Part shown: piece after piece, positions 5,965 through 30,600 of the stretch
How positions within the stretch are numbered: the stretch's first letter is position 1
Layout: every line of letters begins with the position of its first letter
NCBI GenBank assembly: GCA_029261595.1
Contig: JAJDAZ010000010.1
Coordinates: 68,152-132,151 of the forward strand
DNA length: 64,000 nt
Reading direction: 5' to 3'
Source of the DNA: Nitrospinaceae bacterium
GTDB taxonomy: Bacteria > Nitrospinota > Nitrospinia > Nitrospinales > VA-1
The notes under the pieces: model-generated
Told to the model about the DNA's origin: nothing
Databases searched by the model: none
Seen by the model: only the letters and a program-made list of their open reading frames with translations
Translations under genes and position numbers: made by a program

Positions 5965-5979
5965 CGTGGTCGGAATGGA

Positions 5980-8826: not shown

Positions 8827-9059
8827 GAAATAATTCACTCGGAAAGGGGGGAGACTATTCAGGAATCAGGGACGTGAATTAAAATATCCGGCAACATATT
8901 AGCCCAATGTCGTAAGGCTAAACCAGTAAAAAAACCGCGGCAGGGGTAACCGAATAAATGGCGACATGGAGCCGTCATCCAATCCGGTCATTCGGACCGG
9001 AAGATATCGGCTTTGATGTATTTAAAGATAAGGCGTTGGCAATGAATCGGGCGGGGGAG

Positions 9060-9443
9060 CTATTTTGCAATGATCTCGGGCAATATCGTTTTTTTGTCGA
9101 TGACAGCGGCGTCGATTTGACTCTGGGAAAGGTTGCGGACATTGTTCAGATCAACGCCCATCAATTTTACGCCGCGCAAATTCGCACCTTTAAAATTTGC
9201 TCCGGCTAAAATGGCGTCGCCAAAATGGGCGGAGCGAAGGTTGGCCTGACTGAGGTCGGCGCCCGACAGATTGGCGCCCATCAAATTGGCACCCATGAGA
9301 TAGGCACCCATCAACTTGGCATTCCTCAAATTGGCGTTCACCAGATTGGCTCCCTCCAGACTGGCCCGCATGAGGTTGGCACCGGTCAAGTCGTTTTTCG
9401 TTTCTTCCACTTCCTGAATAAAAGATTTTTTCTGGTTTGCCAT
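9060..9443 (-). CDS. pentapeptide-repeat protein
   Basis: 127 aa, dominated by A(D/N)LxG-type pentapeptides (GANLMRASLEGANLVNANLRNAKLMGAYLMGANLMGANLSGADLSQANL...). Confidence 0.9.
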   Translation of the reverse strand: MANQKKSFIQEVEETKNDLTGANLMRASLEGANLVNANLRNAKLMGAYLMGANLMGANLSGADLSQANLRSAHFGDAILAGANFKGANLRGVKLMGVDLNNVRNLSQSQIDAAVIDKKTILPEIIAK

Positions 9444-9919
9444 GGAGCCCTATTTTACATCCTGGTTTTTTTGATATGATATGCAACCACATCGAGTTTA
9501 TTTGAAGGTAATCCCTCAAAATTTGCAAATAGCTTGCCAATCAATTTTCGGAGGCATCAACAATTATTTTATGTTGAAATTTCGTGGCTTTTCGAGGAAA
9601 AATAAGCAGGAAAAAAATAAGCAACTTACGTATAGTATGAATTTGTGCCATTGATTTGTCCTATATTGCAAACCTGAAAATCTATTTCCACCAGCCAGGA
9701 CACCATAGAAAAACCGGCCAACTCTTTAAAAGCGGATTTCCAGAATAAATGACACACGAAAAAATCATTCCGGGGGGGGGGGAATCCTTGAGAAGTTTGT
9801 TTGGGAAACTCTGCAAGCAGGTTGCAATGAAGTCGCAATTCAACAGAAAATATATATCCCGCAGTGAGCAAAAAGTTCGCCGGGCAAAATGTGACTTGTT
9901 TCTTTTTTAATATAAGTTT

Positions 9920-14042: not shown

Positions 14043-15047
14043 ATGACCTCGGCTTTAAAGTCAAAAAAGAAGAGATTGTTATACGTCATCGCCTGGGTCG
14101 TGGCGTCGGCGTGCATTTACCTGGCAGTTGACAAATTTCAATGGGAGTCCGTTCTAGCCGAATTAAAGACCGTCAGTTTTTTCTGGTTGTCCCTGGCCGT
14201 TTTCGGCAATTTTTCAATCCTGATATTGTCGGCGTTGCAATGGCTCAATTTTCTTCCCAGGGACTTTCATTTTGGATTTCGCAAGATGGTCGAAATCATC
14301 GCGCTCATGGTCATGACCAGCAACACCGTGCCATTTTTAGCCGGTCACGCCCTTGCCGTGGTCCTGCTTGCCAAGCGGGCAAACGTCGGACATGCCGTCG
14401 CTCTATCGGTGATCGCATTGGACCAGTTTGCCGAAGGGTTCGCCAAACTCTCGCTTTTCCTTTTGGTCGTCGTTCTCACTCCCATTCCAGACTGGATGCA
14501 ACAGGGATTGCTGGTCGCCCTAACCGCCATTCTTTTGCTTTTTGCGATGCTGTATTTTTTCGCATTTCGGCATCGGCATTTTAAGGTTTTCATGGGCAGG
14601 AAATCCCATCCCCGCTGGTACAAGGTCTGGCATTTTATTTCCCGATGGGCACATCATCTGGAAGGTTTGCGAAACCCCAGGATTTTTGTGATTGGAATGG
14701 GACTGGCTCTGGCAATGAAAGGAGCGGAGGCGTTAGCGATTCTGGCGATTCAAAAAAGCTTCGGGGTGGAGTTACCCCTATGGTCGATTTTTCTGGTCCT
14801 GGCCTCCATCAGCCTGATCACGATGGTCCCCGTGGCTCCCGGCAACCTGGGAGTTTATGAAGCCGCAGTTTTTTTTGTTTACCAATATTTAGGCTTGCCG
14901 CCTGAGCAGGCGTTGGGGCTGGCTCTCATGCAACACCTTTGCCTTTTGGCCCCCAACATCGGGACGGGATACCTCTTCCTGCTATTTCGTAATATTTATC
15001 CCAGGCACCGCCCCCCGGCGGAAGAGGACCCGCGGAAAGCAAAATGA
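14043..15047 (+). CDS. UPF0104 / LPG-synthase-TM 'flippase-like' membrane protein
   Basis: 334 aa with about 8 TM helices. Basic N-terminus followed by '...FFWLSLAVFGNFSILILSALQWLNFLP', typical of the TIGR00374-type family. Confidence 0.65.
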   Translation: MTSALKSKKKRLLYVIAWVVASACIYLAVDKFQWESVLAELKTVSFFWLSLAVFGNFSILILSALQWLNFLPRDFHFGFRKMVEIIALMVMTSNTVPFLAGHALAVVLLAKRANVGHAVALSVIALDQFAEGFAKLSLFLLVVVLTPIPDWMQQGLLVALTAILLLFAMLYFFAFRHRHFKVFMGRKSHPRWYKVWHFISRWAHHLEGLRNPRIFVIGMGLALAMKGAEALAILAIQKSFGVELPLWSIFLVLASISLITMVPVAPGNLGVYEAAVFFVYQYLGLPPEQALGLALMQHLCLLAPNIGTGYLFLLFRNIYPRHRPPAEEDPRKAK

Positions 15048-15048: not shown

Positions 15049-16200
15049 CTAACCCGTCGCTGGGTTTTTAAGCTTAATGGCCTTCAGGTAAAGCGCATCG
15101 TGCTGCGTCATGACCTCCTTCCAGTCGAAGGGAGGCTCCGTTTCCCGGTTGTTGCGGGCAATGGATTCTCTGAGTTCAGGCTCCAGAATCAAGCGGACCA
15201 GATGGTCTTCCAACTCCTGATCGGTCCGCGCTAAAAATCCCTCCTTACCGGCCCGGATGAATCCCTTGACCCCTCCCCGGATTTTTGCCACAACGGGCAA
15301 CCCTGCGCAACGGGCCTCAAGCGCGGCGATGCCAAACGATTCCCATCGCGTGGGTTGAACATAAATATCCACCCTGGAAAAAACCTTGCGTATCTCCTCG
15401 CGGGTACGGTATCCGGGAAGTTCCACAATATCTTCCAACCCCAAATGCTTTATCTGTTTTTCCAGGGCCGGGCGTTTGGGCCCCTCGCCGATAATCTTGA
15501 CTTTCACCCGGATGTTTTCTGGCAGGCGCTTGAGGACTTTTGGCATTAATCGCACCAGAGCGTTTCCACGCTTTTTGCGGAACAGGCGCATGACGGAAAC
15601 GATCCATATTTCCTCCGGGTCCCTTTCCAAAGGAGTCATCTTCCATTCGCGGATATTCAACGCATTGGTTAAAACGGTGATTTCCCGGTTTTTCACCAGG
15701 GAGACAACGTCCTGAACCACCACCTCGCTCACTCCAGAAAACAACACCGGCCAGCGGGACCATTTAAATACCCAATCCAGAATGGCCAGCCCCCAGCGAT
15801 AGGGACCTATGATGGAATCCCAGGTAATGACTGCGGGAATGCCCAGTTTCTGGCTCAAATAAAGGCTTCCGTAGGAGGTGGGAGAGATAATATTGCAATG
15901 GCAATGAACGATATCGAAAGCTTCTTCCTTTAAAATGCGTTCTATTTTCCTGAACGCGCCTGGCGTATAGACAATACGGAAATTGGGCAATAAAGGAACT
16001 TTCAGGCGATGGATGCGAAATCTTTCTCCTTCTGTCTCCCCCGGAATCGGGGTGATCACATGTACTTCGTGGCCTTCTTTTGAAAGTTGGTCGGCCAAAT
16101 CCCGCATATGCATCTCTGTCCCGCCCATTTGCGGCAGAAACCAGTCACAAACCAGGGCGATTTTTAGCTTATGAGAAGGTAATGGGGAGGAATCGCTCAT
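15049..16200 (-). CDS. GT4-family (GT-B) glycosyltransferase
   Basis: N-terminus KIALVCDWFLPQMGGTEMHMRDLADQLSKEGHEVHVITP. C-terminus IIGEGPKRPALE ... ESFGIAALEARCAGLPVVA (the E-x7-E region). The donor and acceptor cannot be inferred; the protein resembles both the PimA/PimB and PIG-A classes. Confidence 0.85.
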   Translation of the reverse strand: MSDSSPLPSHKLKIALVCDWFLPQMGGTEMHMRDLADQLSKEGHEVHVITPIPGETEGERFRIHRLKVPLLPNFRIVYTPGAFRKIERILKEEAFDIVHCHCNIISPTSYGSLYLSQKLGIPAVITWDSIIGPYRWGLAILDWVFKWSRWPVLFSGVSEVVVQDVVSLVKNREITVLTNALNIREWKMTPLERDPEEIWIVSVMRLFRKKRGNALVRLMPKVLKRLPENIRVKVKIIGEGPKRPALEKQIKHLGLEDIVELPGYRTREEIRKVFSRVDIYVQPTRWESFGIAALEARCAGLPVVAKIRGGVKGFIRAGKEGFLARTDQELEDHLVRLILEPELRESIARNNRETEPPFDWKEVMTQHDALYLKAIKLKNPATG

Positions 16201-16499: not shown

Positions 16500-17177
16500 A
16501 TGACGCTCCCTCGTAATCGTTTTTTCTCAAAATTTTCCTTGGTACCGGCGGTGCTTGCGTTTTCATTGTTGCTTTGCTCGTGGGCTCTGGCAACTCCCGG
16601 GAAATTGCCGGCAACCGATCCGGTAGGTTGGGTGTTCATAAAAGACGAAGCTCTCATTGAAGCCCCGATCTCCGTTGTGGAGCAACATTTCAAGGATGTC
16701 CAGAAAGCGGACGCCATGATTCCCGGTCTGAAAACAAAAAAAATTCTGGAACAACTTTCTGATAGCGAACGCATCGACTACGATCATTATAAGTTGCCCT
16801 GGCCTTTTAAAGACCGGTACACCGTCTACCGGGCCAGGGAAGAATTCCTTTCCCGACAGAAAATACGCATCACCCTCAAATCCTTGGATAACTATTCGTT
16901 TGAAGATAAGGGTAAAGTCGCTGTTAAAATAAGAGAAAGCCATTTTCTATTAAAATCGCTTCCGGGGGATGAGACAAAAACCCAGGTCACGGTTAATCTG
17001 ACAGTGAATCCCGGCGGTTTTTTACCGGTCTGGCTCATTAACTTGAACGCGAAATCCATGTCGAAAGATTTATTTAAAAATTTGCGAAGAAACATCAGAA
17101 AAGAGTTTGCCAGACAAAAACACTTTCAGAAAGATAGTATCAAAGATGCGATAGTGGACTCGGTTTCCAATTTATGA
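16500..17177 (+). CDS. secreted START/SRPBCC lipid-binding domain protein
   Basis: Signal peptide ending SWALA. 'DYDHYKLPWPFKDRYTVYRAREEF' and the overall 200-aa size fit the START-like fold. Confidence 0.6.
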   Translation: MTLPRNRFFSKFSLVPAVLAFSLLLCSWALATPGKLPATDPVGWVFIKDEALIEAPISVVEQHFKDVQKADAMIPGLKTKKILEQLSDSERIDYDHYKLPWPFKDRYTVYRAREEFLSRQKIRITLKSLDNYSFEDKGKVAVKIRESHFLLKSLPGDETKTQVTVNLTVNPGGFLPVWLINLNAKSMSKDLFKNLRRNIRKEFARQKHFQKDSIKDAIVDSVSNL

Positions 17178-17464: not shown

Positions 17465-18373
17465 ATGCTCCAATATAAAGAAGATTTACGAACTCTCTTT
17501 TTTATGTCTGCCATCACCACCCTGTTGGTCGTGCAATGGAAAATTGGCGAGATTCAATTTCTTCTTTATATTCCCAGCCTGATTCTGGCCGTTTCAGTGA
17601 GCATCATGGTTCACAACCACATTCATGTCCCCCTTTGGAAATCTAAAACTCTCAACCTTTTAACCGATTACTGGCTCACCTTTTTTTACGGTTATCCTAT
17701 CTGCGGATGGATCCCGACTCATGTGATGAGTCATCATGTTTTGAACAATCAGGACGGAGACACGTCACGAACCAGTTTAGTAGGAAAAAAGAATAATCTT
17801 TTCACTCTATTGATATATCCAACGGCGACGACCCGGGCTCAATTGCCAACTCATTTTGTTTTCCTGAAAAAACTTTGGGCAAAAAACCGTCGGCGCTGTT
17901 ACAAGTATATTTCACAATTCGCGGTCTTTGGCGGAATGATGCTCATCGCCCTGCTCTGGGATTGGAAGAAAACCCTTCTTTTTATTTTCATTCCACAGCA
18001 AACTGCCGTAACCACAGTCCTCTTTTTTAACTATGTCCAGCACGTTCATGCCGACCGCGATTCTCGCTGGAATCACACTCGGGATTTTATTGGGCGAATT
18101 TCAAACTTTCTGCTCTTAAATAATGGGTTTCATGGCGCACACCACGAGCGCCCCAACCTTCATTGGAGCCGGCTTCCTGAGTTGCACTCAAAAATTGAAA
18201 ATCAAATCAATCCTGTTTTGATTGAACAAAGCATATTGTGGTTCTTTTTCCGTGTTTATATTCTGGGTCTTTTCTTCAAACGTTTTCACACCCAGGATTT
18301 AAGAGAACTGCGTCTCAGTGGACATGCAACGGTCCCTCAGCCTCAAACGGCTTCCGGGGCAGGAGTCAATTAG
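17465..18373 (+). CDS. membrane fatty-acid desaturase family protein
   Basis: Three His boxes (HNHIH, HVMSHH, HGAHH) spaced as in the FA_desaturase family, with 4 or more TM segments. Confidence 0.8.
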   Translation: MLQYKEDLRTLFFMSAITTLLVVQWKIGEIQFLLYIPSLILAVSVSIMVHNHIHVPLWKSKTLNLLTDYWLTFFYGYPICGWIPTHVMSHHVLNNQDGDTSRTSLVGKKNNLFTLLIYPTATTRAQLPTHFVFLKKLWAKNRRRCYKYISQFAVFGGMMLIALLWDWKKTLLFIFIPQQTAVTTVLFFNYVQHVHADRDSRWNHTRDFIGRISNFLLLNNGFHGAHHERPNLHWSRLPELHSKIENQINPVLIEQSILWFFFRVYILGLFFKRFHTQDLRELRLSGHATVPQPQTASGAGVN

Positions 18374-18438: not shown

Positions 18439-19488
18439 ATGGGTAACACACCAAATTTAAAAGCACCGTTGGACTACATTCATGTCAATTCTCCTGAACC
18501 TCATGTTGCACGAACGAAAGAACTTTTAAAAAAATATCCTGAGATTCGGACCCTCTTCGGTCACACCCCTTCTACCGCCTGGTGGACGGTTGGCCTGGTT
18601 TCCCTCCAGTTTTTCCTGGCAATCACTCTTACAAACGCGGCATGGTGGGTGGTTATTTTGGCGGCATGGATTCTCGGGGCATTTATTGAACACGCTCTAT
18701 TTGTCATTATTCACGATTGCGCGCATAATCTGGCCTTCAAGCGGCCCTCCTGGAATAAGGTCCTTGGGATCATCGCCAACTTACCAGGTTTTTTTCCAGC
18801 AGCGATTGGGTTCCGTAATTTTCATTTGCTGCATCACCGAAATATGGGGGAACTGGGTTGGGACGCTGATATTCCCGGTCCTAAAGAAGCCGCCTGGATA
18901 GGAAAAAGCCCTTTTCGCAAAACCCTGAGCTTACTCTTCTTTACCGTAGTCGAAGGTCTCATTCGTCCTGCCCGTTTGAAGAAGGTCAATCTGCTGGATG
19001 CCTGGGGAGTGATTAATGGCATTGCTTCAATTGGCGCGGGCCTTTTGATCCTTTATTTTTTCGGCGGGTCTTCCTTTTTCTATCTGGTTCTATCCTGTAT
19101 GTTTGGAATAGGCCTGCACCCTCTTGGCGGTCGCTGGATTCAGGAGCATTATATATTTCGACCGGGCCAGGAAACCTACTCCTATTACGGTCCCTTAAAT
19201 AAACTGAGCTTCAACGTGGGTTATCATAATGAACATCACGATTTTATGATGGTTCCCTGGTCGCGACTACCCCAAATAAGAAAAATTGCTTCCGAATACT
19301 ATGATGACCTTTTGTATCACACCTCCTGGACGAAGGTCCTTTGGCAGTTTATTCTGGACCCAAATCTGACAGGATTCAGCCGCATGGTTCGCCAAGACCA
19401 TGAAGAAGGAAGCTCTGTAAAATTTTCCACCCAGGAAACCGATAAAATCAACGAGAGCAACCAAAACGCAGTTATTCCGGTCTCATAA
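18439..19488 (+). CDS. sphingolipid delta-4 desaturase (DEGS/Des1)-like protein
   Basis: His boxes HDCAHN, HLLHHR and HNEHHDF. '[25 protein letters not shown]' is nearly identical to my recollection of animal DEGS1 ('[25 protein letters not shown]'). The N-terminus '[12 protein letters not shown]' matches the Lipid_DES N-terminal domain. Confidence 0.85.
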   Translation: [349 protein letters not shown]

Positions 19489-19493: not shown

Positions 19494-20522
19494 TTACCCG
19501 GCCCAGCGCAGAATAACCTTTCCGGTGGATTTTCTCGTTTCCAGGAAGGCGTGCGCCTCAGCTACCTGATCCGCCGGGTACTCTCCTCCCACTGTCGGGT
19601 TCAGCTCTCCTTTTTCGGCCAAATCCACAACGGTACGCATGCAGCGTTGCAGAACCTCAGGCCTATTCTCGGCAATTTTCAGCATGTTCACTCCAAGAAC
19701 GCATTTGGAGTTTGAGAGAAGCTGAAGACTGTGGACAAACCCGAACCCCAGCACCGTCCGCAGGACGCGAAAAAAATCCCATCGACTACCGGTCATTCCT
19801 GCGACGCCGAAGGCCACGATCCGTCCTCCGGAACCAAGGAGGTTGTAGCCTTTGCGAAAGGTTTTACCGCCGATGGAATCAAAAACCACATCCAATCCTC
19901 TCTCTCCACAAATATTGCGGATTTCTTTTTCAAAATCATTTTGCCGGTAATTGATCGGATGATCCACGCCGATCTCCCGGAGATAATCGAGTTTCGTTTG
20001 CGAACCGGCTGTCCCAAAAACAACGCACCCTCGGCGTTTGGCCATTTGAACCAATGCCGTCCCGACTCCGCCAGCCGCCGCTTGGATGAGAACGTGGTCC
20101 CCGGTCTTAAGGCAAACCATTTCCGCCGCCGCGTACCAGGCCGTACAATATTGCGTGGCCAGCGCTGTGGCCACACCCGAATCCATCGCTTCCGGAATTT
20201 TCACCGTCACCATCGAATGGGTCACCACTTTATCTGAATAACCCCCGAATCGCGTGAAGGCCAACACGCGGTCGCCTGAACTCAATTTCTCAACCCCCTC
20301 ACCCACCCCAATTACCCTGCCCACCACTTCGTAACCCAGAACACAGGGTATCCTGGGTGCATCGGGATAAAGCCCCCGCCTGGCCAATACATCGGCAAAA
20401 TTCAGTCCGGAAGCTTCCACTTCGATCAGGACCTCGCCTTCACCCGGCACCGGGTCTTTTACCTCGCGCATTTCAAATGCGGTATTCGAATTTCCTAAGC
20501 GAATCAAGTAGATCGATTTCAT
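19494..20522 (-). CDS. MDR-superfamily NAD(P)H quinone oxidoreductase / enoyl-reductase-like (VAT-1-like)
   Basis: 342 aa. GroES-like N-terminus (EVLIEVEASGLNFADVLARRGLY). Rossmann segment 'HVLIQAAAGGVGTALVQMAKRRGCVVFGTAGS'. Confidence 0.85.
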   Translation of the reverse strand: MKSIYLIRLGNSNTAFEMREVKDPVPGEGEVLIEVEASGLNFADVLARRGLYPDAPRIPCVLGYEVVGRVIGVGEGVEKLSSGDRVLAFTRFGGYSDKVVTHSMVTVKIPEAMDSGVATALATQYCTAWYAAAEMVCLKTGDHVLIQAAAGGVGTALVQMAKRRGCVVFGTAGSQTKLDYLREIGVDHPINYRQNDFEKEIRNICGERGLDVVFDSIGGKTFRKGYNLLGSGGRIVAFGVAGMTGSRWDFFRVLRTVLGFGFVHSLQLLSNSKCVLGVNMLKIAENRPEVLQRCMRTVVDLAEKGELNPTVGGEYPADQVAEAHAFLETRKSTGKVILRWAG

Positions 20523-20583: not shown

Positions 20584-21363
20584 TTACTCAGAAATTTGAG
20601 TTTGACAGGAAGTTGGTTTGGGAGGCGCATCATCTATGGGAATTCCTGATAATTTGGCAACCCACGGGAATCGGCTGATTTCTTCCCCGGTATACCCAAG
20701 ATTAAAAACCGTTGGGCTCAAGGGCACTTGCTTTGACTTTACTAGATAAGTTCCTAATACTCTGTCCGGGAAGGCGCTCGTGATACCGTAATTGCCGTGT
20801 TCATTGTGAAAGTGATGAGACAAATGCAGTTTCTTGAGGGTACGAAAAAATTTCGACTTTGGTGTATAGTTCAAGTGCTCGACACAATGGCAATATTCAT
20901 AAAAGCATGTGTACCACAATCCGGCGGCTAAAGCTCCAGCACAACCGCTGGCCCCGCCAAGCCCCAGCCAGCCCAATGGGGCGGCAATAATAAACACCGT
21001 GGGAATGATCGTGTAGGGCGCGGCAAATAAAACGCTCAGGTCATTCGGGTTTTGGTGGTGATCGAAGTGAATCCGTTTCCACAAAGCCGATGTGAACTGG
21101 AATTGGTAAAGTAAACGTGAGTGCAGTAAATACTGATGTATAAAATATTCTGAAAAAGGATATATAATACAACAGCCGAAAATCGCTACGATCAGCGACC
21201 AGAGGTTTTGGGCCCAATAAATGGATAAACCGGCAAAAAGGCTTCCCAATAGAAAATATAATTGGATCGATGGGTAAGAAATATAGGCTTTAAAAAATTC
21301 TCGAAAGCTTAATTTGTCGAGAAATTTTTCACTTTCCTTCCAATATCCGGATCCAAAAAACAT
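20584..21363 (-). CDS. FA2H/Scs7-like fatty-acid (sphingolipid alpha-) hydroxylase family protein, no cytochrome b5 domain
   Basis: His motifs align one-to-one with recalled human FA2H. EYFIHQYLLH aligns with EYVLHRFLFH. HFDHHQNP aligns with HGQHHKSP. YEYCHCVEH aligns with YDMTHYYLH. LKKLHLSHHFHNEHGNYGIT aligns with [20 protein letters not shown]. Confidence 0.75.
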   Translation of the reverse strand: MFFGSGYWKESEKFLDKLSFREFFKAYISYPSIQLYFLLGSLFAGLSIYWAQNLWSLIVAIFGCCIIYPFSEYFIHQYLLHSRLLYQFQFTSALWKRIHFDHHQNPNDLSVLFAAPYTIIPTVFIIAAPLGWLGLGGASGCAGALAAGLWYTCFYEYCHCVEHLNYTPKSKFFRTLKKLHLSHHFHNEHGNYGITSAFPDRVLGTYLVKSKQVPLSPTVFNLGYTGEEISRFPWVAKLSGIPIDDAPPKPTSCQTQISE

Positions 21364-21587: not shown

Positions 21588-21665
21588 TACGGGTCAGTTT
21601 AATGTTCTCTGCCCATTACTCTGGAATTTTTATTGCAGATTATAGATCAAGTTAAAGAAACAAGA

Positions 21666-22643
21666 ATGGAGCCACCCCTGGAAGAAGATTCAACAAACAC
21701 GATTTTGGTGAAACAATGGCTTCAATGGTGGAAAAGCCGCTCTGTCCTGCAAAAACTTTTGCCGCTTGTCATTTTGGCAGGTTTCTGGGGACTACACATA
21801 AGCATGGGCGGCTTTCGGCCTGACCATCTAGCAGTCGCACTCCTTGTATTCGCTTATTATGGAGGACCCCGCACGCAATGCTATTACAGGTTTTTTCTCC
21901 CCTTTACATTATTCATGGTCCTGTATGACAGCCAGGGTTATTACGCGGAATTGATTCGGGGGAAAGTCCATGTTGCCGAACCTTATCAGTTCGACCTGAC
22001 GTTTTTTGGCATTGAAACCTCCGAGGGAAGGCTGTTACCCAGCCAATGGTTGCAAAAACATACCCATCCGGCCATAGATGTCGTCACCAGTTTTGGCTAT
22101 ATAATATTCGTCCCGGTATGTTTTGGAGTGGCGACTTATTTCCGTTTTTTTTTGGTTTCGGGAAAAAATTCCTCTCTGGAAAAAGAAACGATTATAACCA
22201 AGGCCCATGCCTTGATGTGGGGCATGTGCTGGTTAAACATCCTGTCCTGTTCCACTTATTACTGGTATCCCGCCGCCCCTCCCTGGTATGTCGAAATATA
22301 TGGATTGGGACCCGCACAATTGGACGCAGCCCCCAGCGCGGCAGGAGCTCTACGACTCGATGAGTTTTTCGGCATTGACTTCGTATCCAGTTTCTATTCA
22401 AGAGTCCCAAATGTGTTTGGCGCCATTCCATCAGGCCATGTCGCCTTCCCTCTGCTGTGTTTGTATTTCGCTTTTAAGTTATCGTCACTGCGTGTTTTCT
22501 GTCTGTTGTATTTTTTACTGGTTTGCTTTTCCGCAGTGTATCTAAATCATCACTATGTTCTGGATGTCCTTTGGGGAATCACCTATGCTCTGATTGTGGC
22601 GTGGTTGATGGACAGGTTTTACAAGTCAGGTTCGCAAGAATAA
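21666..22643 (+). CDS. Aur1/Ipt1-type (PAP2_3) inositolphosphotransferase-like protein, i.e. IPC-synthase / sphingomyelin-synthase-like
   Basis: 'YPAAPPWYVEIYGLG ... GALRLDEFFGI ... FGAIPSGHVAFP ... YLNHHYVLDVLWG' parallels recalled yeast Aur1 'FPAAPPWYKILYGL ... GLARIDKLLGI ... FGAFPSLHSGCA ... YLTHHYFVDLMAG'. PAP2 C2 (SGH) and C3 (HxxxD) motifs are present. The ATG at 21666 is preferred over the TTG at 21633. Confidence 0.75.
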   Translation: MEPPLEEDSTNTILVKQWLQWWKSRSVLQKLLPLVILAGFWGLHISMGGFRPDHLAVALLVFAYYGGPRTQCYYRFFLPFTLFMVLYDSQGYYAELIRGKVHVAEPYQFDLTFFGIETSEGRLLPSQWLQKHTHPAIDVVTSFGYIIFVPVCFGVATYFRFFLVSGKNSSLEKETIITKAHALMWGMCWLNILSCSTYYWYPAAPPWYVEIYGLGPAQLDAAPSAAGALRLDEFFGIDFVSSFYSRVPNVFGAIPSGHVAFPLLCLYFAFKLSSLRVFCLLYFLLVCFSAVYLNHHYVLDVLWGITYALIVAWLMDRFYKSGSQE

Positions 22644-22686: not shown

Positions 22687-24273
22687 ATGCCGTTAATTAT
22701 AGGTCCTGGCGGGTGGAAAACAATCGTGTCTGGAGTCCCCAATAAATTGATGAAACTACTGGAGTCGAGATTCAGTTTTCGTTTTCTTTGGATGGCCGGT
22801 GTCATCGCATTGGGCGCGTCGCTGTTTCTCATCTTCTGGTTCTGGCGGGATGCCATTCCCACTGGAAATACCAGCGGAGTGTGGGCCGCTATTGCCAACG
22901 ACTTTGCTGAAGGGGTGCTTTACCGTCCTGTTTTCGATGAGTCCGGTTATGGTGGAACCCGCTACATGCCGCTTTTTTTCGTGCTCTACGGCCTGCTCAT
23001 TTCCTTTTTTAATGATCCGGTCACGGCGGGGGTGTCGTTATCTCTCACCGCCATGATCTTTCTTGACCTTGGCATTTACTTTTTGCTACGGGAAATGGGG
23101 GTCCCAAAATCAATCGCCATTCCCCTGACCTTTCTGGCTCACACATCTTTATCCTTTCAAAAGTTGACTCTGGAAACCAAGGGGGATTTCTTTGCGGCGG
23201 CCATGAATGTCTGGGGCATCCTGTTAGCTCTCAAACATCTGCGGACCCACTCCTGGGCTTTGTTGACCTTGAGCGCCGGCTTCTTTTTAGCGGCGATATT
23301 CACTAAATTCACCACCATCGGCGGATTGGCGGTGGTCACTCTACTTTTTCTGATCCGGAAAAAATATTCCTCCGCCATTTTCCTTGTCGGGCTGATTGGA
23401 GTCTCCACCTTGACCCTGCTTTGGGGAGTCAATGAGATCAGCGAGGGAAGAGCCCTCGCGGCTTTTCAAGCTTGCGCTCTGGGCGGATTCAATTTTGACT
23501 ACGCGATGAAAACCCCACTCTGGTTTCTAACCGTCACCATTCAGGACCCGTTCTTCTTTGCCATGATGTGTCTTGGGATTTATCTCATGACGAAAATAAA
23601 GGCCGAGCAATGGAAATCCTTCGTCCCTCTTTATTTCGCCTTCACTCTGGCTTCGACGTTCGCTATTTTTTCCTCACCGGGAACCGACAGCAATCACCTG
23701 ATCGATTTGCATGTCACCTGTATTTTGTTGATGGCGATTCAGTTCAAGAAAGAGGAGCGGTTTTCAAAAATGTACAATTTTTGTTTTATATTCATAATTG
23801 CCGGCAACCTGTTCATGGCGATCCCCGGAACCCTTTCCATAAAAGATCATCTTGAACTCAAAGGAAGACCGACGCGGGCCACCGTCCAGGCTATCCAGGA
23901 GGAACTGGGCCCGCAGATAAAAAATCTGCTCAGCGAAAATCCACTGGTCCCTCTGCTGATGGGTCAGCGTCCCATCGTTATGGACGCGTTCAGCCTGAGG
24001 CTCATGGCTCAAAAGTCCCCTGAAGTGCAGGCTGATTTCACTCAGAAAATCGAAAATCATTTTTTTGAGGCCATTGTTTTACAGGACTGGTCCGGCGCTC
24101 CCCGGGACCAACTGGAGGATGCCATGGAAAAGCATTCTTCCCTGGGCGTGGATCGATTTTACGGCGAAGTTCATTTCCCACCGGGCTTTTTGGACCTGAT
24201 GAAAAAACATTATTTTCTGAGCTTCGTCAAAAGACCTTATGTGATTTATGAGCCCATAAAACCTTCCCCATAA
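22687..24273 (+). CDS. GT-C fold membrane glycosyltransferase (ArnT/PMT GT39-like)
   Basis: 528 aa with 10 or more TM helices. An acidic motif sits in the first external loop (VFDESGYGGTRYMPLFF). A C-terminal soluble domain of about 150 aa is present. An alternative ATG lies at 22750. Confidence 0.55.
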   Translation: MPLIIGPGGWKTIVSGVPNKLMKLLESRFSFRFLWMAGVIALGASLFLIFWFWRDAIPTGNTSGVWAAIANDFAEGVLYRPVFDESGYGGTRYMPLFFVLYGLLISFFNDPVTAGVSLSLTAMIFLDLGIYFLLREMGVPKSIAIPLTFLAHTSLSFQKLTLETKGDFFAAAMNVWGILLALKHLRTHSWALLTLSAGFFLAAIFTKFTTIGGLAVVTLLFLIRKKYSSAIFLVGLIGVSTLTLLWGVNEISEGRALAAFQACALGGFNFDYAMKTPLWFLTVTIQDPFFFAMMCLGIYLMTKIKAEQWKSFVPLYFAFTLASTFAIFSSPGTDSNHLIDLHVTCILLMAIQFKKEERFSKMYNFCFIFIIAGNLFMAIPGTLSIKDHLELKGRPTRATVQAIQEELGPQIKNLLSENPLVPLLMGQRPIVMDAFSLRLMAQKSPEVQADFTQKIENHFFEAIVLQDWSGAPRDQLEDAMEKHSSLGVDRFYGEVHFPPGFLDLMKKHYFLSFVKRPYVIYEPIKPSP

Positions 24274-24377: not shown

Positions 24378-25217
24378 ATGCGGAAGAATATGTCGTTGAC
24401 CACCACCTCCAAACGAAACATTGAACGCACTCTGGTCATCCTTCCGACCTACAACGAAGCCGATTCATTGATAAAAGTGGTGGATGCGGTACTGAGTTTG
24501 CCTGAGAATCTGGATATTCTGGTGGTGGATGATTCCTCGCCCGATGGCACCGCGGACCTCGCAAAAAATCATTCCGCTTTTGATGATCGGCTTTTTCTGT
24601 TACAGCGGCCTGGCAAACAGGGGCTGGCCACAGCTTACAAGGAAGGGTTCCAATGGGGGTTGAATAAGGGATACGACGTGTGCATGGAAATGGACAGCGA
24701 CCTTTCACACGACCCGACGGATATTTCCCGGCTGTTGCAGACGATTACAGAGGGAGCCGACATTGCCATTGGCTCGCGATATTTGAATGGCATCAGCGTC
24801 ATCAACTGGCCGCTCAGCCGGTTGCTGGTCAGCATCGGCGCCGGTATTTATACGCGGTGGGTGTCCGGTCTGCCGCTGTCCGACCCGACGGGGGGATTCA
24901 AAGCAATCCACCGGGATGTGATCGAACATCTGGACTGGAATAAGGTGAAAAGCGATGGCTACGGTTTTCAGATCGAAGTGAGTTTTTTTGCTTTTAAAAA
25001 GGGTTTTCTGATTAAAGAGATCCCTATCATTTTTACCGAGCGCCGCGATGGGGAATCCAAGTTTTCCCTGTCGATCGCGATCGAGGCCGCTTTTAGAGTT
25101 CTGCAACTAGGGTGTCTGGAACGCTTTCAAAGTTCCAAAAAAATTTCCTCCCCCTCTTACAATAGAAACCTGTACGAAGCCCCTCCAGGCGAGCCCGCTA
25201 CGCGGGAGGAGGGGTAG
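24378..25217 (+). CDS. polyprenol/dolichol-phosphate mannose synthase (Dpm1/Ppm1-like GT2)
   Basis: LVILPTYNEADSL ... ILVVDDSSPDGTADLA ... RPGKQGLATAYKEGF ... MDSDLSHDP ... GSRY ... GGFKA ... DGYGFQIE. This is a full Dpm1-type motif set. Confidence 0.9.
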   Translation: MRKNMSLTTTSKRNIERTLVILPTYNEADSLIKVVDAVLSLPENLDILVVDDSSPDGTADLAKNHSAFDDRLFLLQRPGKQGLATAYKEGFQWGLNKGYDVCMEMDSDLSHDPTDISRLLQTITEGADIAIGSRYLNGISVINWPLSRLLVSIGAGIYTRWVSGLPLSDPTGGFKAIHRDVIEHLDWNKVKSDGYGFQIEVSFFAFKKGFLIKEIPIIFTERRDGESKFSLSIAIEAAFRVLQLGCLERFQSSKKISSPSYNRNLYEAPPGEPATREEG

Positions 25218-25259: not shown

Positions 25260-26816
25260 ATGAAAAATTCGGCCTCAAGTAGAATTCCACCCGCCAAAAA
25301 TCCGCCGAACGTCAATGCTGGGCCCAGCGACCAGCTGGCCAGCCCCCAGGCGGGTTGGTGGCATTATAAATCCATCCTTTTAGCTTTGGCCCTGCATGCA
25401 TTTTTGTTTCTTTGGCTGTTCCAGTTGGGTTATTCGGCGGAGGAATGGAAGCGCATCAATATAATCGCCAAATCTCCCTCCGTGAAGCCCATGGCGAAAA
25501 CCATCATGCAGGAGCACGGACCTTTCGGTTTTGTGGTCTGGTACTACAGTACCCACTTTGAGGCGCAACTTTATTACCGATACGCCAAATTGACTCTGTA
25601 CGGGGATGTGGATTATTGGACAAGAAACAATAACCTGCAAATCAACAGTGAACGCCCCTTACCTTATCGGGATATCCCTATCGAATACCAACCGGGAGCA
25701 CTCCTAGCAATCACATTGCCGGCTTTATTTGCCGACAATCTTAGAGAGTATAGATTCTGGCTGGCCACCTGGTTCGGGTTCCTTTATATGTTAAACCTTT
25801 TCCTGGGTATCAAACTCGTGACCGGGGGGTCGCCCTCTGTCGGCCAGGCGAAACGTTTGCTCTGGTGGTCTTTCGCCTTTTTAGTCCTTTTGGGCGGAAT
25901 CGTCACCTCCCGGTTCGACCACGTCGTGGTGACCAGCATTTTGCTTTCCACTCTCGTGCTCATCCACGCACTTAAGAAAAGGGGAAAGAAATCTTTACTG
26001 TGGTTTGGTTTTTTTGGGGTGGTCACGTCAATGGGCGTGTTGACCAAAATCGTGCCCGGTCTCATTCTGATTTCAGTGTTGCTGTTTTTGCTCGTACAAC
26101 ACAAAAATACGCCACGCTGGGCGGAAGCCATGGCTTCGATTGCGGGATTGGGAGCGGGACTGGTTTTTCTGAATGCTGTGTTTTATGGTATTTTCGGTCC
26201 CGGTTACTGGGAAAGCTTCACTTATCATATGGACCGGGGAGTCCAACAGGAATCTGCCTATGCCGGGATAATGTTGCTGGCTCAATTGGTGGGCATTGGC
26301 ACCGTGACCCATGACGTTTCCTTTGGGTCGTCCAATGTGATCTTCGCGCTCGCCGACCAGGTCAAACTCATTTCCCCCTTTCTATTTATTGGAATCGTGG
26401 CTGTTCTTGTTCGGAGGGTTTGGCGCCAGCCTCAAGCGGACGCCAAGGCGGAAGAGTCGGGGCATTTTGTTTGCAGTCAAATCTTATTGCTGACCCTGAT
26501 CCTGCTTCTTGCGTTCATGCTCACCAATAAGGTATTTTCCCCACAATACATGATTTGGGTCGGGCCGTTGCTCGCCATCTTGGTGGCTGTCCACAAAAAC
26601 ATGTGGAAAATCGGCATACTATTTTTAGTCGCGACCACCATGACCCAGGGAATTTTCCCTCAGCTTTATAAACTCATGAATCTATTTCACCCGGCCATGG
26701 TGGTTCTTTTGAACCTGCGCAATGCTTTGCTCATCGTGATTCTGATAATGCTGATTCGGGATCTGCCAGTTTTGTTGGAAAAGAATCACTCCTCCCGGCT
26801 TTCCCCGGAAAGCTGA
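25260..26816 (+). CDS. polytopic membrane protein, possible GT-C glycosyltransferase (DUF2029/GT87, PimE-like)
   Basis: 518 aa with 11 or more TM helices. The first loop 'LYGDVDYW...PYRDIPIEYQPGALLAITLPALF' resembles the GT87 signature (D...Y....pY..f.YPP). The assignment is tentative. Confidence 0.45.
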   Translation: MKNSASSRIPPAKNPPNVNAGPSDQLASPQAGWWHYKSILLALALHAFLFLWLFQLGYSAEEWKRINIIAKSPSVKPMAKTIMQEHGPFGFVVWYYSTHFEAQLYYRYAKLTLYGDVDYWTRNNNLQINSERPLPYRDIPIEYQPGALLAITLPALFADNLREYRFWLATWFGFLYMLNLFLGIKLVTGGSPSVGQAKRLLWWSFAFLVLLGGIVTSRFDHVVVTSILLSTLVLIHALKKRGKKSLLWFGFFGVVTSMGVLTKIVPGLILISVLLFLLVQHKNTPRWAEAMASIAGLGAGLVFLNAVFYGIFGPGYWESFTYHMDRGVQQESAYAGIMLLAQLVGIGTVTHDVSFGSSNVIFALADQVKLISPFLFIGIVAVLVRRVWRQPQADAKAEESGHFVCSQILLLTLILLLAFMLTNKVFSPQYMIWVGPLLAILVAVHKNMWKIGILFLVATTMTQGIFPQLYKLMNLFHPAMVVLLNLRNALLIVILIMLIRDLPVLLEKNHSSRLSPES

Positions 26817-27442
26817 TTTTTGACATAAATGATCCTTTGCACCGCGGTGTAATTGCTGAGAACGGCAATAATCAATATGGTTCCTATCATAATGTATTGG
26901 CCCACAACAGGAATGCCCGCAAGCAGGGACCCCAGAATTATCAGGGCGATGCGTTCGGGCCGTTGCATCCACCCGACCTTGCAATCGACGCCCAAACCTT
27001 CGGCGCGGGCGCGGGTGTAGCTGACCATGAACGAACCGGACAAAGCCAGAATAATAATTAGAACCATGACGGACCCAAGAAACGACTCCGGATCATTCGC
27101 AGACAAGCGGGAAAAATGCCAGGCCAATCCCAGGAAAACAAACAGCTCGCTGAACCGGTCGATGGCGCTGTCCAGAAAAGCTCCAAACGAGGAAATTCTC
27201 CCAGTCAGCCTGGCCATTTGACCGTCCAGAACATCACAGGTTCCCGCCAGAATCAGGACTGCCCCGGCGCAGAAGAAGGCGCCGTTTGCGTAAATCAGCC
27301 CGGCGATCATACTCAGCGACAAACCCACGAGGGACAAGGCATTGGGGCTCACGCCCAGGCCCGAAAGAAAACTGCAAAAAGGAGCCATCGCCCGGACAAA
27401 GCCTTCCTTGATCTTTTCGCTCAATAGGGAATATTCCGGCAT
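26786..27442 (-). CDS. CDP-alcohol phosphatidyltransferase, PgsA1/AIPS-like (possible phosphatidylinositol-phosphate synthase)
   Basis: Canonical D-G-x2-A-R-x8-G-x3-D-x3-D motif (DVLDGQMARLTGRISSFGAFLDSAIDRFSE). 'SYTRARAEGLGVDCKVGWMQRPERIALIILG' parallels recalled M. tuberculosis PgsA1 'SYIKARAEASGLRGDGGFIERPERLIIVLTG'. ATG at 27442 (TTG at 27448). The 3' end overlaps the convergent upstream gene by 31 nt. Confidence 0.9.
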   Translation of the reverse strand: MPEYSLLSEKIKEGFVRAMAPFCSFLSGLGVSPNALSLVGLSLSMIAGLIYANGAFFCAGAVLILAGTCDVLDGQMARLTGRISSFGAFLDSAIDRFSELFVFLGLAWHFSRLSANDPESFLGSVMVLIIILALSGSFMVSYTRARAEGLGVDCKVGWMQRPERIALIILGSLLAGIPVVGQYIMIGTILIIAVLSNYTAVQRIIYVKNQLSGESREE

Positions 27443-27490
27443 CCGCAATCAACCTTGGAATCCGATGAAAGCGCGGTTCGCGCTTCCCTC

Positions 27491-27652: not shown

Positions 27653-30600
27653 TCAGGAGTTTTCCTCATCCGGCTCCTCTTCGTCGTCCTCCTGGTTTTT
27701 AATTTCCTCCAGTAACCAGGGGACCATATGGTCGATACTGGGTCCACCCAGAAAGCGCACCACGGGAACGGTGATTTGTAAATCCGTTTCAATCCTGACA
27801 ATCAACTCCATTGCCATTAAGGAATCCAGCCCCAGATCGGCGAGCGGGAGATCCATCTCAAGTTTGGAGGGAGCGAGTCTCAATACCTTGGCGATCGACT
27901 CTTTAAGATGTTCGGCAAGAATCTGCGGTCGCTCATCCGGGAGTGCGGCTAAAAGTTTGGGCCGGATGAGTTCATCGCCTTCCCCATCACCTGCACTTTC
28001 ACTCTGGGCGCCATCCCCCTGCACATAGGAAAACCTGGCAGGGTTCGAGCCCGACCGGCTCAAGGAGAGGAGTTTCTTCCAGTCCACCGGAAAGACCCCG
28101 ATCTGTACCGGATTTTGATGCATCACCCGGCCAAGCATTTCCACCGCCTGCCGGGACGACAGACTCATCAGACCTTGATTCTCCATGCTTTTGATCAATC
28201 CTTGTTGCCGGGCGGCGACTCCCACACCGGATAATGGCCCCCAGTCAATCACCTGCCCGGAGAGACCCTGGGCGCGGCGATACCGGGCCAACGATTCCAG
28301 GAACGCATTGGCGGCGACGTAGTTTGCCTGACCCGGATTGCCCATCACGTTTGCCACCGAGGAAAACAGGGTGAAAAAGTCCAACTGTTTGTCCTGAGTC
28401 TGCTGGTGCAGGTTCCAGGCGCCCTGAACTTTCGGACCCATGACTCGTTTTAGCCGTTGCGGGGTCAGATGAATCAAAAGACCGTCGTCGAGCACCGCCG
28501 CCGCATGATGGATGCCCTTAAGTGGTGGCATGCTGGATTCGATCTCTCCCAACACACGGGTCACATCTTCCTGCAAAGAAACATCGCCCCGAACCACCTG
28601 CACCACCGCTCCCGTTTCTTCCATCCGGGCGATGGCAGTCTTGGCTTCTATCGATGGTGTTTCACTGCGGCCCATGAGTGCCAGATGCCGCGCTCCCTGC
28701 TGAACCATCCACTCGGCAATCGCCAGGCCAAAACCACCCAGTCCTCCGGTGATCAGATATGAAGCCTCCCGAGAAAACTTCATGGAAGCCTCTTCGTGTC
28801 GGATGATTTTCAGATCAGGTTCTTCCAGGGATAAAACCACCTTCCCCATGTGCCTGCCCTGGGCCATGGTGCGAAAGGCACTCACTGCATTGGAAATTGG
28901 GAAAATTCTATGTGGAAGTGGATGGAGTGATCCTTCTTCCATATGTCGCATGATTTCTATAAATATAGCGCGGAACTCATTATTCAGGGACTTGAAGCCT
29001 TCTTTGATTTCGACCATGGTGATGAAGGAAATTCCCTTCAAAAAGGGCCGCAAGCCAATCTTATTATTTTCATAGATATCGCGTTTGCCGATTTCCAGAA
29101 AACGGCCGAGCGGTTTCAAAATTTCAATGCTCTTGAAAATAAACTTGCCCGCCAGCGAGTTCAAAACCAGGTCAACGCCTTCACCCTGAGTTTGTTGCAT
29201 AATTTGCTCTGCGAAGGCCAGGGACCGCGAATCAAAAATATGCTCCACTCCCAGGTCGCGGAGGAAACCTCTTTTTTCGTCATTGCCCGCAGTGGCGAAA
29301 ACCTGGGCACCGGCCAATTGGGCAATCTGCACCGCCGCCATCCCCACTCCACCGGAGGCGGCATGGATCAGAACCCTTTCCCCTTTTTGCATTTTACCCG
29401 CCGAGTGCAGCATGTACCAGGCGGTTAAAAAAGTCACCGGAATGGTGGCCGCATCGGAAAATCCGATCTTGGGAGGTTTGTGAACCGTGGCAAACGTCGG
29501 TGCCAACGTATAAGAACCGAAGCACCCTCCCCCTGCAAGGGCCGCCACTTCGTCGCCCACCTTAAAATCCGTCACGCCTTCGCCCACGGCACTCACCACG
29601 CCCGCGCACTCCAATCCCAGAGTCTCCCAGGTGTTATCGACACCTTCCAACTCTCCCGGAAGCAAGCCCATGCCAATCATCACATCGCGAAAATTAAGAC
29701 CCGCCGCAAATACCCTGATTTCCAACTCCCCCGGACCGGGCTTCGAACGACTCACAGATCTGAGCTGGAAATTTTCCAGGATTCCGGGAGCGCCTATATC
29801 CATCACAAACGCGGGAGGTTCCTCATTATTCTCCTGAATCAAACTATCGACACAGGTTTCTTCGGGTTCAGGGCGATGCAGACGATAGACAAATCTCCGA
29901 TCCTGACGATAGGCAACTTCTTCTTCCGCATCTTCCTGCCATAATTCTTCGAACAGGGCGCGGGCCGGAGGGTCCCCTGACTCAGGATCAAGGTCCACCA
30001 GCTTGCACTTGAAATTGGAATGCTCGGACTGGATCACCCGGCCAATTCCCCAGGCAGGTGCCTGGGCCACGGAAATATTTTTTTCCTGGGAGCGCACCGA
30101 CTGCCCCCCCTGGGTGATGATAAAAAGCCGAGGTGTTTTGGACCACTTGGCATTGGCCAGTTCGTTGACGAGATGAATCGCGCTCATACCGCCTACCGCT
30201 TCCGCCTGCTGGAGAGAGTCGGGAGATAAATCTCCTGTTTCCGGCAAGTCCAGATTCCATAAGTGAACAATGCCGCGCAAGGCCGGTGTTTTCTTGCGCA
30301 CAAAATGGATCAGGTCTCCCATATCTTCCAGGGACTCGGGACGAATCTGGATCGGGCCGTCTTCATCTGCTTTAAATATTTTCCCTGGAGTCACCAGAAA
30401 AGGATTTTCGCCAAAGTTTTTTAATGATTCGGCCAGGGCCTGTCCTGTGCCTTTGCCGTCACTGAATATTATCCAACTGCCCTTTTTACCGGGTTTGGGT
30501 GTTTTAATTTCTTCTGAGGAATCCTCAACGTAGACTTTTGGACCTCTTGCGACAAAAAACGTTTGCAAGGAATGGGAACGCTCTTTGGAACCTGCCCATT

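Follow-up and report, generated by a model that had tools for sequence, protein, structure and literature searches.

The 64,000-nucleotide stretch analysed here (the window), from contig JAJDAZ010000010.1 of a Nitrospinaceae bacterium, carries on its plus strand a gene for a predicted integral-membrane phosphoinositol transferase of the type of yeast Aur1 and Bacteroides thetaiotaomicron BT_1522, which is probably an inositol phosphorylceramide (IPC) synthase. The open reading frame (ORF) encodes 336 amino acids from a TTG at position 21633 or 325 from an ATG at position 21666. The public gene call (P0001, 325 amino acids) uses the ATG, and the residue numbers given below follow it. With the TTG start the protein gains 11 residues, MQIIDQVKETR, similar to the N-termini of close homologues such as P0006 (MQEVDRVKEV) and P0003 (MPETDQVQD), so that the true start is probably position 21633 and the annotated one too short. 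A preliminary description had placed the gene at 21666–22643; its reading frame and end stand, whereas its start probably has to be moved to the upstream TTG. A scan for promoters and terminators gave counts not clearly above shuffled expectation (20 against 14.9 ± 3.4 and 23 against 19.8 ± 4.9).

The best match of the protein among all PDB sequences is Saccharomyces cerevisiae Aur1 (9vj3_A and 9ivc_A, phmmer E = 1.2e-13). In this alignment (residues 179–310 with Aur1 178–308) the four blocks PAAPPWY, GALRLD, FGAIPSGH and YLNHHYVLD line up residue for residue, bearing out the preliminary description, which had recognised hallmarks of Aur1 in the C-terminal 130 or so residues; the match to Aur1 at the level of sequence is confined to this region. 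Within the first block, AAPPW and the Tyr are invariant across 22 aligned homologues. Pfam PAP2_3 (PF14378) matches residues 134–314 (model positions 25–190 of 190) with 62.6 bits, against a cutoff of 27 (E = 5.5e-17). The generic PAP2 model, proposed earlier as the comparison, also passes its cutoff (31.4 against 27.2 bits), yet remains well under the PAP2_3 score, and PAP2_C (PF14360), the domain of sphingomyelin synthases (SMS) and of IPC synthases of the plant type, stays under its cutoff (21.8 against 27 bits). The sole NCBIfam match is NF052609 (PhinosDhcerSyn, the BT_1522 model), which aligns over its full length (residues 36–315 with model positions 13–283 of 305) with 135.8 bits and E = 2e-39. 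Because this score lies far under the equivalog cutoff of 480, the protein is classed by sequence as a full-length homologue of the Bacteroides phosphatidylinositol (PI)-dihydroceramide synthase outside that equivalog. Like BT_1522, it is a bacterial single-subunit PAP2_3 protein.

An AlphaFold2 model of the protein, built on 22 homologues (mean pLDDT 84.4, pTM 0.84), was compared with the PDB using Foldseek. The two best matches are chains of Aur1, the enzyme of the Aur1–Kei1 structures suggested for this comparison: 9ivc_A (E = 1.5e-10, TM 0.68/0.66, 314 columns) and 9vj4_A (E = 9.4e-10, TM 0.65/0.74), the Aur1 matches spanning 291–314 columns. Scores drop sharply after these two structures. 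The other PAP2 enzymes (PgpB, LpxE, LPP1, SMSr and acid phosphatases) reach E values of 1e-2 or worse and TM 0.24–0.39, with PgpB, LpxE and LPP1 at 0.33–0.36 and SMSr at 0.37 (E = 2e-2). In the predicted model, the resemblance to Aur1 thus covers the whole protein, beyond the shared five-helix LPT/PAP2 core.

In Aur1, H255, H294 and D298 are each essential; it has been proposed that D298 activates H294, that H294 attacks the PI phosphate to give a phosphoinositol–enzyme intermediate and that H255 activates the ceramide hydroxyl (PMC13133130). The corresponding residues, His258, His296 and Asp300, are present in the C2 and C3 motifs, as had been noted, and are invariant in the 22-sequence alignment (42–76% identity to the query); every one of the 83 genomic relatives checked shows the patterns PS.H and HH[YF]..D. 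PAP2 phosphatases bind the terminal phosphate through the C1 motif K(x6)RP. Neither the protein nor any of the 83 relatives has this motif, and the pattern [ST]R(x5)H(x3)D, a Ser/Thr-Arg ahead of the C3 His, is absent from the target protein, the only one searched for it. The lack of both argues against a phosphomonoesterase, and the active site appears to be of the transferase type found in Aur1. By analogy with Aur1 it probably faces the periplasm.

A PAP2-type lipid phosphatase, for instance the missing enzyme that would turn phosphatidylinositol phosphate (PIP) from a neighbouring PIP synthase into PI, would also pass the generic PAP2 model and would be equally expected beside PIP synthase genes; the pathway requires such an activity, and the window showed no PgpA-like gene. 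The missing C1 motif and Arg, however, are joined by the poor fold match to PgpB, LpxE and LPP1 compared with that to Aur1, and by the phenotype of the Bacteroides homologue, as deletion of BT_1522 abolishes PI-dihydroceramide and leaves PI-diacylglycerol intact (Heaver et al. 2022, PMC9246714). On these grounds the phosphatase is the weakest of the alternatives weighed here, and we regard it as highly improbable.

A database search returned 1269 homologues at E ≤ 1e-3, the top 120 listed being 43–100% identical to the protein, and 191 relatives were confirmed in contigs of one genome per species. The closest belong to metagenome-assembled genomes of Nitrospinota (78% to about 50% identity). 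At 41–49% identity Bdellovibrionota dominate (Oligoflexia, Bdellovibrionia and Bacteriovoracaceae), and single representatives come from Desulfarculia, Verrucomicrobiota and Vicinamibacteria (Acidobacteriota). Some public records of these relatives are named automatically as 'aureobasidin A resistance protein' or 'inositol phosphorylceramide synthase'; since such names are in use and BT_1522 provides a characterised bacterial homologue, comparison with fungi alone would make the protein seem more novel than it is. Gene neighbourhoods were surveyed as presence of homologues over 84 related loci and by clustering of the ORFs of 80 distinct related loci. Many of these loci are short contigs, and in the high-GC loci L008 and L082 gene positions were taken from tblastn coordinates and database gene calls rather than from the longest-ORF filter. 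The genes surrounding the transferase gene are listed in Table 1.

Table 1. Features of the transferase locus, with coordinates in the window and the basis of each assignment.
Feature	Coordinates	Strand	Basis
Calcineurin-like phosphoesterase	12150..13487	-	Pfam Metallophos 24 bits; syntenic in L010, L011 and L044
LPG_synthase_TM/flippase-like membrane protein, BT_1521 counterpart	14043..15047	+	Pfam 129.8 bits; TIGR00374 61.4, above cutoff 43.2
GT4 nucleotide-sugar glycosyltransferase	15049..16200	-	Pfam Glycos_transf_1, Glyco_transf_4
START/SRPBCC-like putative lipid-binding protein, hydrophobic N-terminus	16500..17177	+	Weak Pfam START and Polyketide_cyc, under cutoffs
Second membrane FA_desaturase/hydroxylase, weakly CrtR-like, beside DEGS-like gene	17465..18373	+	Pfam FA_desaturase 87.8 bits
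DEGS-like sphingolipid delta4-desaturase or hydroxylase	18439..19488	+	Pfam Lipid_DES 46.8 bits (cutoff 23), FA_desaturase 109 bits
MDR-family NAD(P)H oxidoreductase, travels with DEGS-like gene	19494..20522	-	Pfam ADH_zinc_N, ADH_N; TIGR02824 244.8 bits, under cutoff
Scs7/FA2H-like fatty-acid 2-hydroxylase, divergent from transferase gene	20584..21363	-	Pfam FA_hydroxylase 71.7 bits
Aur1/BT_1522-type PAP2_3 phosphoinositol transferase (predicted)	21633..22643	+	ORF; Pfam PAP2_3; NF052609; Aur1 best PDB sequence and fold match
PAAPPWY block, residues 202–208	22269..22289	+	Identical to Aur1 199–205; predicted periplasmic loop equivalent to Aur1 EL3
GALRLD block, residues 227–232	22344..22361	+	Aligns to Aur1 223–229
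C2 motif FGAIPSGH, residues 251–258	22416..22439	+	Aligns to Aur1 248–255; His258 = Aur1 H255
C3 motif YLNHHYVLD, residues 292–300	22539..22565	+	Aligns to Aur1 290–298; His296/Asp300 = Aur1 H294/D298
GT-C-fold membrane glycosyltransferase, 528 aa, 44 nt downstream of transferase gene	22687..24273	+	AlphaFold2 model and Foldseek
GT2 polyprenol-phosphate-hexose synthase, DPMS-like	24378..25217	+	Pfam Glycos_transf_2; best PDB match Pyrococcus dolichol-phosphate mannose synthase 5mlz, E = 1.8e-29
Second putative GT-C membrane glycosyltransferase	25260..26816	+	Weak Pfam PMT_2, 21.2 bits, under cutoff; conserved in Nitrospinota loci
CDP-alcohol phosphatidyltransferase, PIP-synthase (PgsA1) type, presumed source of PI donor	26786..27448	-	NCBIfam, PDB, synteny
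Highly reducing type I polyketide synthase, 2566 aa, KS-AT-DH-MT-psiKR-ER-KR-ACP	27653..35353	-	Pfam domain map, NCBIfam
GNAT-type N-acyltransferase, candidate bacterial ceramide synthase (bCerS type)	35555..36691	+	Weak Pfam Acetyltransf_1, synteny

The presumed source of the head-group donor is the CDP-alcohol phosphatidyltransferase encoded at 26786–27448 on the minus strand. It matches the NCBIfam models NF040950 (archaetidylinositol-phosphate synthase, 150 bits), NF052561 (BT_1523 type, 145 bits) and NF045883 (PIP synthase, 140 bits), all under their cutoffs. Its best PDB matches are PIP synthases of Renibacterium and mycobacteria (5d91, 6h53 and 6wm5), and the translation carries the signature D(x2)DG(x2)AR...G(x3)D(x3)D, so that the PgsA1-like gene pointed out earlier is of the PIP-synthase type. 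Of the 84 related loci, 46 have a PIP-synthase-like gene no more than 10 kb away from the PAP2_3 gene. Among the 80 distinct loci, the most frequent neighbours are CDP-alcohol transferases (43), class-III aminotransferases (43) and MMPL proteins (31), followed by GtrA (23), oxidoreductases of the GFO/IDH/MocA family (22) and myo-inositol-1-phosphate synthase (MIPS; 17). The loci bearing MIPS (BT_1526 type) and GtrA (BT_1524 type) lie outside Nitrospinota, mostly in Bdellovibrionota. The Bacteroides cluster comprises BT_1521 (LPG-synthase-like), BT_1522, BT_1523 (PIP synthase), BT_1524 (GtrA-like), BT_1525 (PIP phosphatase) and BT_1526 (MIPS) (PMC9246714). The BT_1521 counterpart of the window is conserved in Nitrospinota loci and in a Verrucomicrobiota locus; together with the PIP synthase, MIPS and GtrA neighbours, it shows that the linkage of the family to inositol-lipid synthesis is conserved across phyla.

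The MIPS and PIP phosphatase of such a pathway may be encoded elsewhere in the genome; as a speculative candidate for the phosphatase, the window offers the calcineurin-like phosphoesterase at its 12-kb position. In L003/L017, L014, L025, L030, L046, L062 and about 40 other loci, mostly of Bdellovibrionota, the Aur1-like gene is accompanied by genes for a CDP-alcohol transferase, a class-III aminotransferase, a GFO/IDH/MocA (inositol-dehydrogenase-like) protein, MIPS, GtrA, MMPL and MlaE. The pairing of dehydrogenase and aminotransferase in these loci might, speculatively, point to an aminoinositol (inosamine) head group.

The conserved linkage also bears on whether the protein is a sphingolipid synthase that draws on another donor, such as phosphatidylethanolamine or phosphatidylglycerol, to form ceramide-phosphoethanolamine or ceramide-phosphoglycerol. 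Both of these sphingolipids are made by bacteria, catalytic motifs in the LPT/SMS superfamily do not predict head-group specificity, the score against the PI-dihydroceramide synthase equivalog model is low and MIPS is not in the window. Set against this are the strong linkage to PIP-synthase-type genes across phyla, the presence of MIPS in related loci outside Nitrospinota, a fold and sequence nearest to PI-specific Aur1 rather than to SMSr, and a PAP2_C (SMS-type) score under its cutoff. We consider a change of donor distinctly unlikely.

On the acceptor side, the preliminary description had named DEGS-like and FA2H-like neighbours, and both assignments are borne out. In the DEGS-like protein the sphingolipid-specific Lipid_DES domain is fused to a desaturase domain, and the only PDB matches of the FA2H-like protein are to yeast Scs7, the 2-hydroxylase of very-long-chain fatty acids in ceramide (E = 1.7e-10). 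The oxidoreductase gene between them co-occurs with the cluster in L005, L007, L008 and L044. None of the 84 related loci has a counterpart of the second membrane desaturase.

The known bacterial ceramide pathway consists of serine palmitoyltransferase (Spt), an N-acyltransferase (bCerS) and a dehydrogenase (CerR), whose genes are often clustered (PMC11334938, PMC11324152). The GNAT-type N-acyltransferase of the window has no NCBIfam match, and a search of PDB sequences gave nothing useful for it; most of the roughly 1800 homologues of its family in the database bear the annotation 'hypothetical' or 'GNAT'. In four genomes (L086, L087, L088 and L090) its homologues have Spt- and CerR-like synteny. 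In three of these, Calditrichota, Zixibacteria and a third genome, homologues of 40–50% identity adjoin genes for Aminotran_1_2 and NAD-epimerase/dehydrogenase proteins. The Calditrichota Aminotran_1_2 protein matches Sphingobacterium serine palmitoyltransferase with E = 2.6e-119, far above KBL or BioF. In the fourth genome the homologue, in the same range of identity, belongs to a cluster with the order Spt, KS, ACP, epimerase, Glyco_transf_21 and GNAT. Because its homologues sit with Spt and CerR-like genes, we consider the GNAT-type protein a candidate ceramide synthase of the bCerS type by synteny. Glyco_transf_21 is the ceramide glucosyltransferase family. The fourth cluster (L090, 4062–11170), in which the Spt, KS, ACP, CerR-like epimerase, Glyco_transf_21 and bCerS-like GNAT genes are followed by two GT4 genes and one GT2 gene, has the look of a gene cluster for bacterial glycosphingolipids.

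In the Vicinamibacteria locus L082, ceramide synthesis and the Aur1-like family are directly linked in the genome: genes for a saccharopine-dehydrogenase-like protein, Spt, a radical SAM enzyme, a GNAT homologue and a PAP2_3 homologue follow one another on one strand (4927–10888). The donor and acceptor logic read from the neighbourhood at the outset is thereby supported and extended, through a bCerS-type gene in the window and an Spt/bCerS linkage in another phylum. The arrangement in L082 also has the appearance of a compact, putative inositol-sphingolipid operon of Acidobacteriota, in which the radical SAM enzyme is unexplained. Among the related loci, tblastn with three Spt and three CerR sequences found Spt only in L082 and one weak CerR-like match, in L024; no α-oxoamine synthase (AOS) occurred among the 20 frequent neighbour families obtained when the ORFs of the 80 loci were clustered and scanned with Pfam.

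Between the transferase and PIP synthase genes lie three further genes on the transferase strand. The first product has no Pfam or NCBIfam match and nothing useful in PDB sequences; its homologues in the database number only 104 (Nitrospinota, Verrucomicrobiota and a few others), of which a few distant ones are annotated as GT87 or PMT_2. Its GT-C glycosyltransferase fold was identified solely by structure-based search. The AlphaFold2 model (pLDDT 92.7) matches ArnT (TM 0.58), STT3/PglB/AglB, ALG12 and PimE, and the predicted fold includes a C-terminal periplasmic domain. Some Nitrospinota loci have two paralogues of this gene, and its public call (P0123, 507 amino acids) begins 21 codons inside the longest ORF. 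The GT2 protein that follows is of the type that makes polyprenol-phosphate-hexose, and the third, a large membrane protein, likewise gave nothing useful in the PDB sequence search. Upstream, the GT4 protein has full-length PDB matches to BshA and PimA (E = 3.8e-15), with MshA homologues matching over the C-terminal part only, and the START/SRPBCC-like gene, part of the conserved Nitrospinota cluster, recurs in six related loci. Its product might bind or transfer lipids; in eukaryotes, ceramide is bound by the START domain of CERT. From similarity at the level of families, the simplest reading is that a phosphoinositol lipid would be glycosylated in the periplasm from polyprenol-phosphate sugars.

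The block from the flippase-like gene through the PIP synthase gene recurs in about ten Nitrospinota loci, and the module of flippase-like, GT4, GT-C and PAP2_3 genes recurs in the Verrucomicrobiota locus L071, where the GT-C gene adjoins that of PAP2_3. An apparent 802-residue GT-C::PAP2_3 fusion at that locus was rejected: the matches lie in different frames (8589–10013 in frame 3 and 10001–10894 in frame 2), so that the genes are adjacent and overlapping rather than fused, and the long ORF is a spurious high-GC frame.

The polyketide synthase gene lies upstream of the PIP synthase gene on the same strand. It stands between the PIP synthase and bCerS-type genes in a subset of Nitrospinota and is absent from L009 and L011, in which the GNAT gene adjoins the PIP synthase gene. 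Its domain map includes no release domain (thioesterase, reductase or AOS). Sphingoid bases derived from polyketide synthases are made by the Pseudomonas SgaA/SgaB pair of a polyketide synthase and an AOS (PMC12134224). As no AOS lies nearby, a supply of acyl chains from the polyketide synthase to Spt or bCerS is speculation. The region from 26.8 to 47 kb is syntenic with L089, from a Nitrospinales genome, and includes genes for PIP synthase, polyketide synthase, GNAT, a molybdopterin oxidoreductase, an FGE-sulfatase-like protein, DUF748, DUF2062, DUF6279, a GCS2-like protein, an AstE/AspA-like protein and a Na+/H+ exchanger; the L089 counterparts of the polyketide synthase, PIP synthase and bCerS-type proteins are 52–64% identical. 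The full architecture, combining Aur1-like, PIP synthase, bCerS-type, DEGS- and Scs7-like, polyketide synthase, flippase-like, GT4, DPMS-like GT2 and new GT-C genes, is undescribed in the literature searched.

This architecture also raises the question of the acceptor. Yeast Ipt1, an Aur1 paralogue with the same motifs, moves phosphoinositol from PI not onto ceramide but onto MIPC, a mannosylated sphingolipid. An Aur1-fold phosphoinositol transferase of the window could similarly act on a sugar hydroxyl of a glycolipid or glycan, or on a long-chain alcohol, diol or other lipid derived from the polyketide synthase. The core module present in all Nitrospinota loci (flippase-like, GT4, PAP2_3, GT-C, GT2, GT-C and PIP synthase) is more like glycolipid assembly of the phosphatidylinositol mannoside (PIM) or glycosylphosphatidylinositol type than like ceramide synthesis; the DEGS and FA2H genes are accessory to it, Spt is not in the window, and the polyketide synthase directly upstream of the PIP synthase gene has no release domain. 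Yet the bCerS-type gene stays in the conserved cluster even where the polyketide synthase is missing (L009 and L011), the L082 PAP2_3 gene comes right after Spt and bCerS-like genes, genes bearing Lipid_DES and resembling Scs7 flank the transferase gene, and the sole characterised homologues, Aur1 and BT_1522, both use ceramide. An acceptor other than ceramide is therefore considered unlikely.

Homology, fold, catalytic residues and conserved gene linkage agree in the preferred reading, that the protein is an integral-membrane phosphoinositol transferase of the Aur1/BT_1522 type acting as an IPC synthase, which we hold to be probable. We infer its donor, acceptor and topology, and the glycosylation of its product, as follows. 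By analogy with Aur1, Asp300 would activate His296, which would attack the phosphodiester of PI; diacylglycerol would leave and a phosphoinositol–enzyme intermediate would form. His258 would then activate the C1 hydroxyl of ceramide or dihydroceramide, to which phosphoinositol would be transferred to give IPC. PI would originate from the PIP-synthase-type enzyme, and ceramide from the bCerS-type N-acyltransferase together with an Spt whose gene would lie in another part of the genome; the DEGS-like and Scs7-like neighbours would probably desaturate or hydroxylate this ceramide in the present organism. The product would probably be extended in the periplasm by the two GT-C enzymes, whose genes lie downstream on the same strand and are likely co-transcribed with the transferase gene, using a polyprenol-phosphate-hexose made by the DPMS-like GT2, and the end product would be a glycosyl-inositol-phosphoceramide-like lipid.

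Several observations weigh against this reading. The identity to Aur1 is only about 21–22%, which, taken with the NF052609 score under the equivalog cutoff, means that substrate specificity is not safely transferable. Neither MIPS nor a PgpA-type PIP phosphatase was found among the ORFs of at least 150 amino acids in the 64-kb window, and neither Spt nor a CerR-type reductase was found there by Pfam scans or by tblastn with the Spt and CerR sequences. Of 11 Nitrospinota loci, only about 4 have the DEGS and FA2H genes alongside the cluster. The periplasmic orientation draws on the analogy with Aur1 and a weak charge bias. The literature searched reports no inositol lipids or sphingolipids of Nitrospina, and a paper on the Black Sea does not mention Nitrospinota in its supplements.

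Compared with known systems, the cluster has in common with that of BT_1522 (PMC9246714) a BT_1523-type PIP synthase and a BT_1521-type LPG-synthase-TM/flippase-like gene, and differs in lacking the PgpA-type phosphatase and MIPS from its window, in the Nitrospinota and Bdellovibrionota affiliation of its relatives and in adding the GT4, two GT-C, DPMS-like GT2, bCerS-type, polyketide synthase, DEGS-like and Scs7-like genes, which are not in the Bacteroides cluster as described. Fungal Aur1 (9ivc, 9vj3/9vj4; PMC12122681, PMC13133130) has in common with the protein PAAPPWY, FGAxPSxH, YLxHHYxxD, the His-His-Asp triad and the lack of a C1 motif, but is a Golgi enzyme, whereas the protein studied here would reside in the bacterial inner membrane. 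No Pfam match to the Kei1 family was obtained among the cluster genes scanned, between 14 and 37 kb, so that no partner subunit is evident, unlike in the Aur1–Kei1 heterodimer, though a divergent one may have escaped the scan; Bacteroides BT_1522 is not reported to need such a partner. SMS/SMSr and the plant and kinetoplastid IPC synthases (PAP2_C) share the LPT-fold core and the His-His-Asp triad and likewise move a head group from a glycerophospholipid to ceramide, but the PAP2_C score and the SMSr fold match of the protein are weak. The mycobacterial PIM pathway (PgsA1, PimA, Ppm1 and PimE) resembles the cluster, at the level of families only, in its PgsA1-type PIP synthase, PimA-like GT4, polyprenol-phosphate-mannose-synthase-like GT2 and a GT-C whose distant relatives are annotated as GT87 (the PimE family), whereas mycobacteria lack an Aur1-like transferase and ceramide genes.

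The window contains no tRNA genes and no Rfam families, and is bounded by genes for a histidine kinase (left) and a Map protein (right). The gene at 49598–51004 (minus strand) encodes a bona fide BioA (TIGR00508, 558 bits, above the cutoff of 405) and overlaps the start of a DAO-family FAD oxidoreductase gene (50964–52076) by about 40 nucleotides; no BioF or other AOS lies nearby. A 281-residue protein encoded at 56085–56930 (minus strand) joins an N-terminal ATP-cone, an Mrr_cat restriction-endonuclease-like domain and an AF1548-like C-terminal domain, an unusual combination.

IPC synthase is a validated antifungal target, and inositol sphingolipids are usually associated with fungi and plants; to our knowledge, gut Bacteroidetes are the only bacteria from which an IPC-type synthase has been characterised. 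In this analysis, Aur1-fold enzymes form a well-conserved clade of Nitrospinota and Bdellovibrionota, with outlying members from Desulfarculia, Verrucomicrobiota and Acidobacteriota, and the linkage of genes connects this clade with PIP synthase, with MIPS and with bacterial genes of ceramide synthesis. Two further finds are a GT-C family that is uncharacterised and a polyketide synthase inserted in a sphingolipid cluster. A broader and more tentative proposal, possible although we would not call it probable, is that Nitrospinota and some Verrucomicrobiota make eukaryote-like glycosyl-inositol-phosphoceramides, from bCerS-made ceramide that in some lineages would contain polyketide-derived chains and undergo DEGS- and Scs7-like modification, by periplasmic Aur1-like transfer and GT-C extension with polyprenol-phosphate sugars. 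Such a pathway would be a bacterial counterpart of the assembly of these lipids in fungi and plants, mixing enzymes of bacterial and eukaryotic type, and would bear on the bacterial distribution of the eukaryote-like sphingolipid-decorating enzymes Aur1, DEGS and Scs7. Nitrospinota are the main and abundant nitrite oxidisers of the sea. If the reading is correct, these organisms would carry inositol (glyco)sphingolipids, with consequences for their outer-membrane biology and for the reading of sphingolipid and inositol-lipid biomarkers in the environment.

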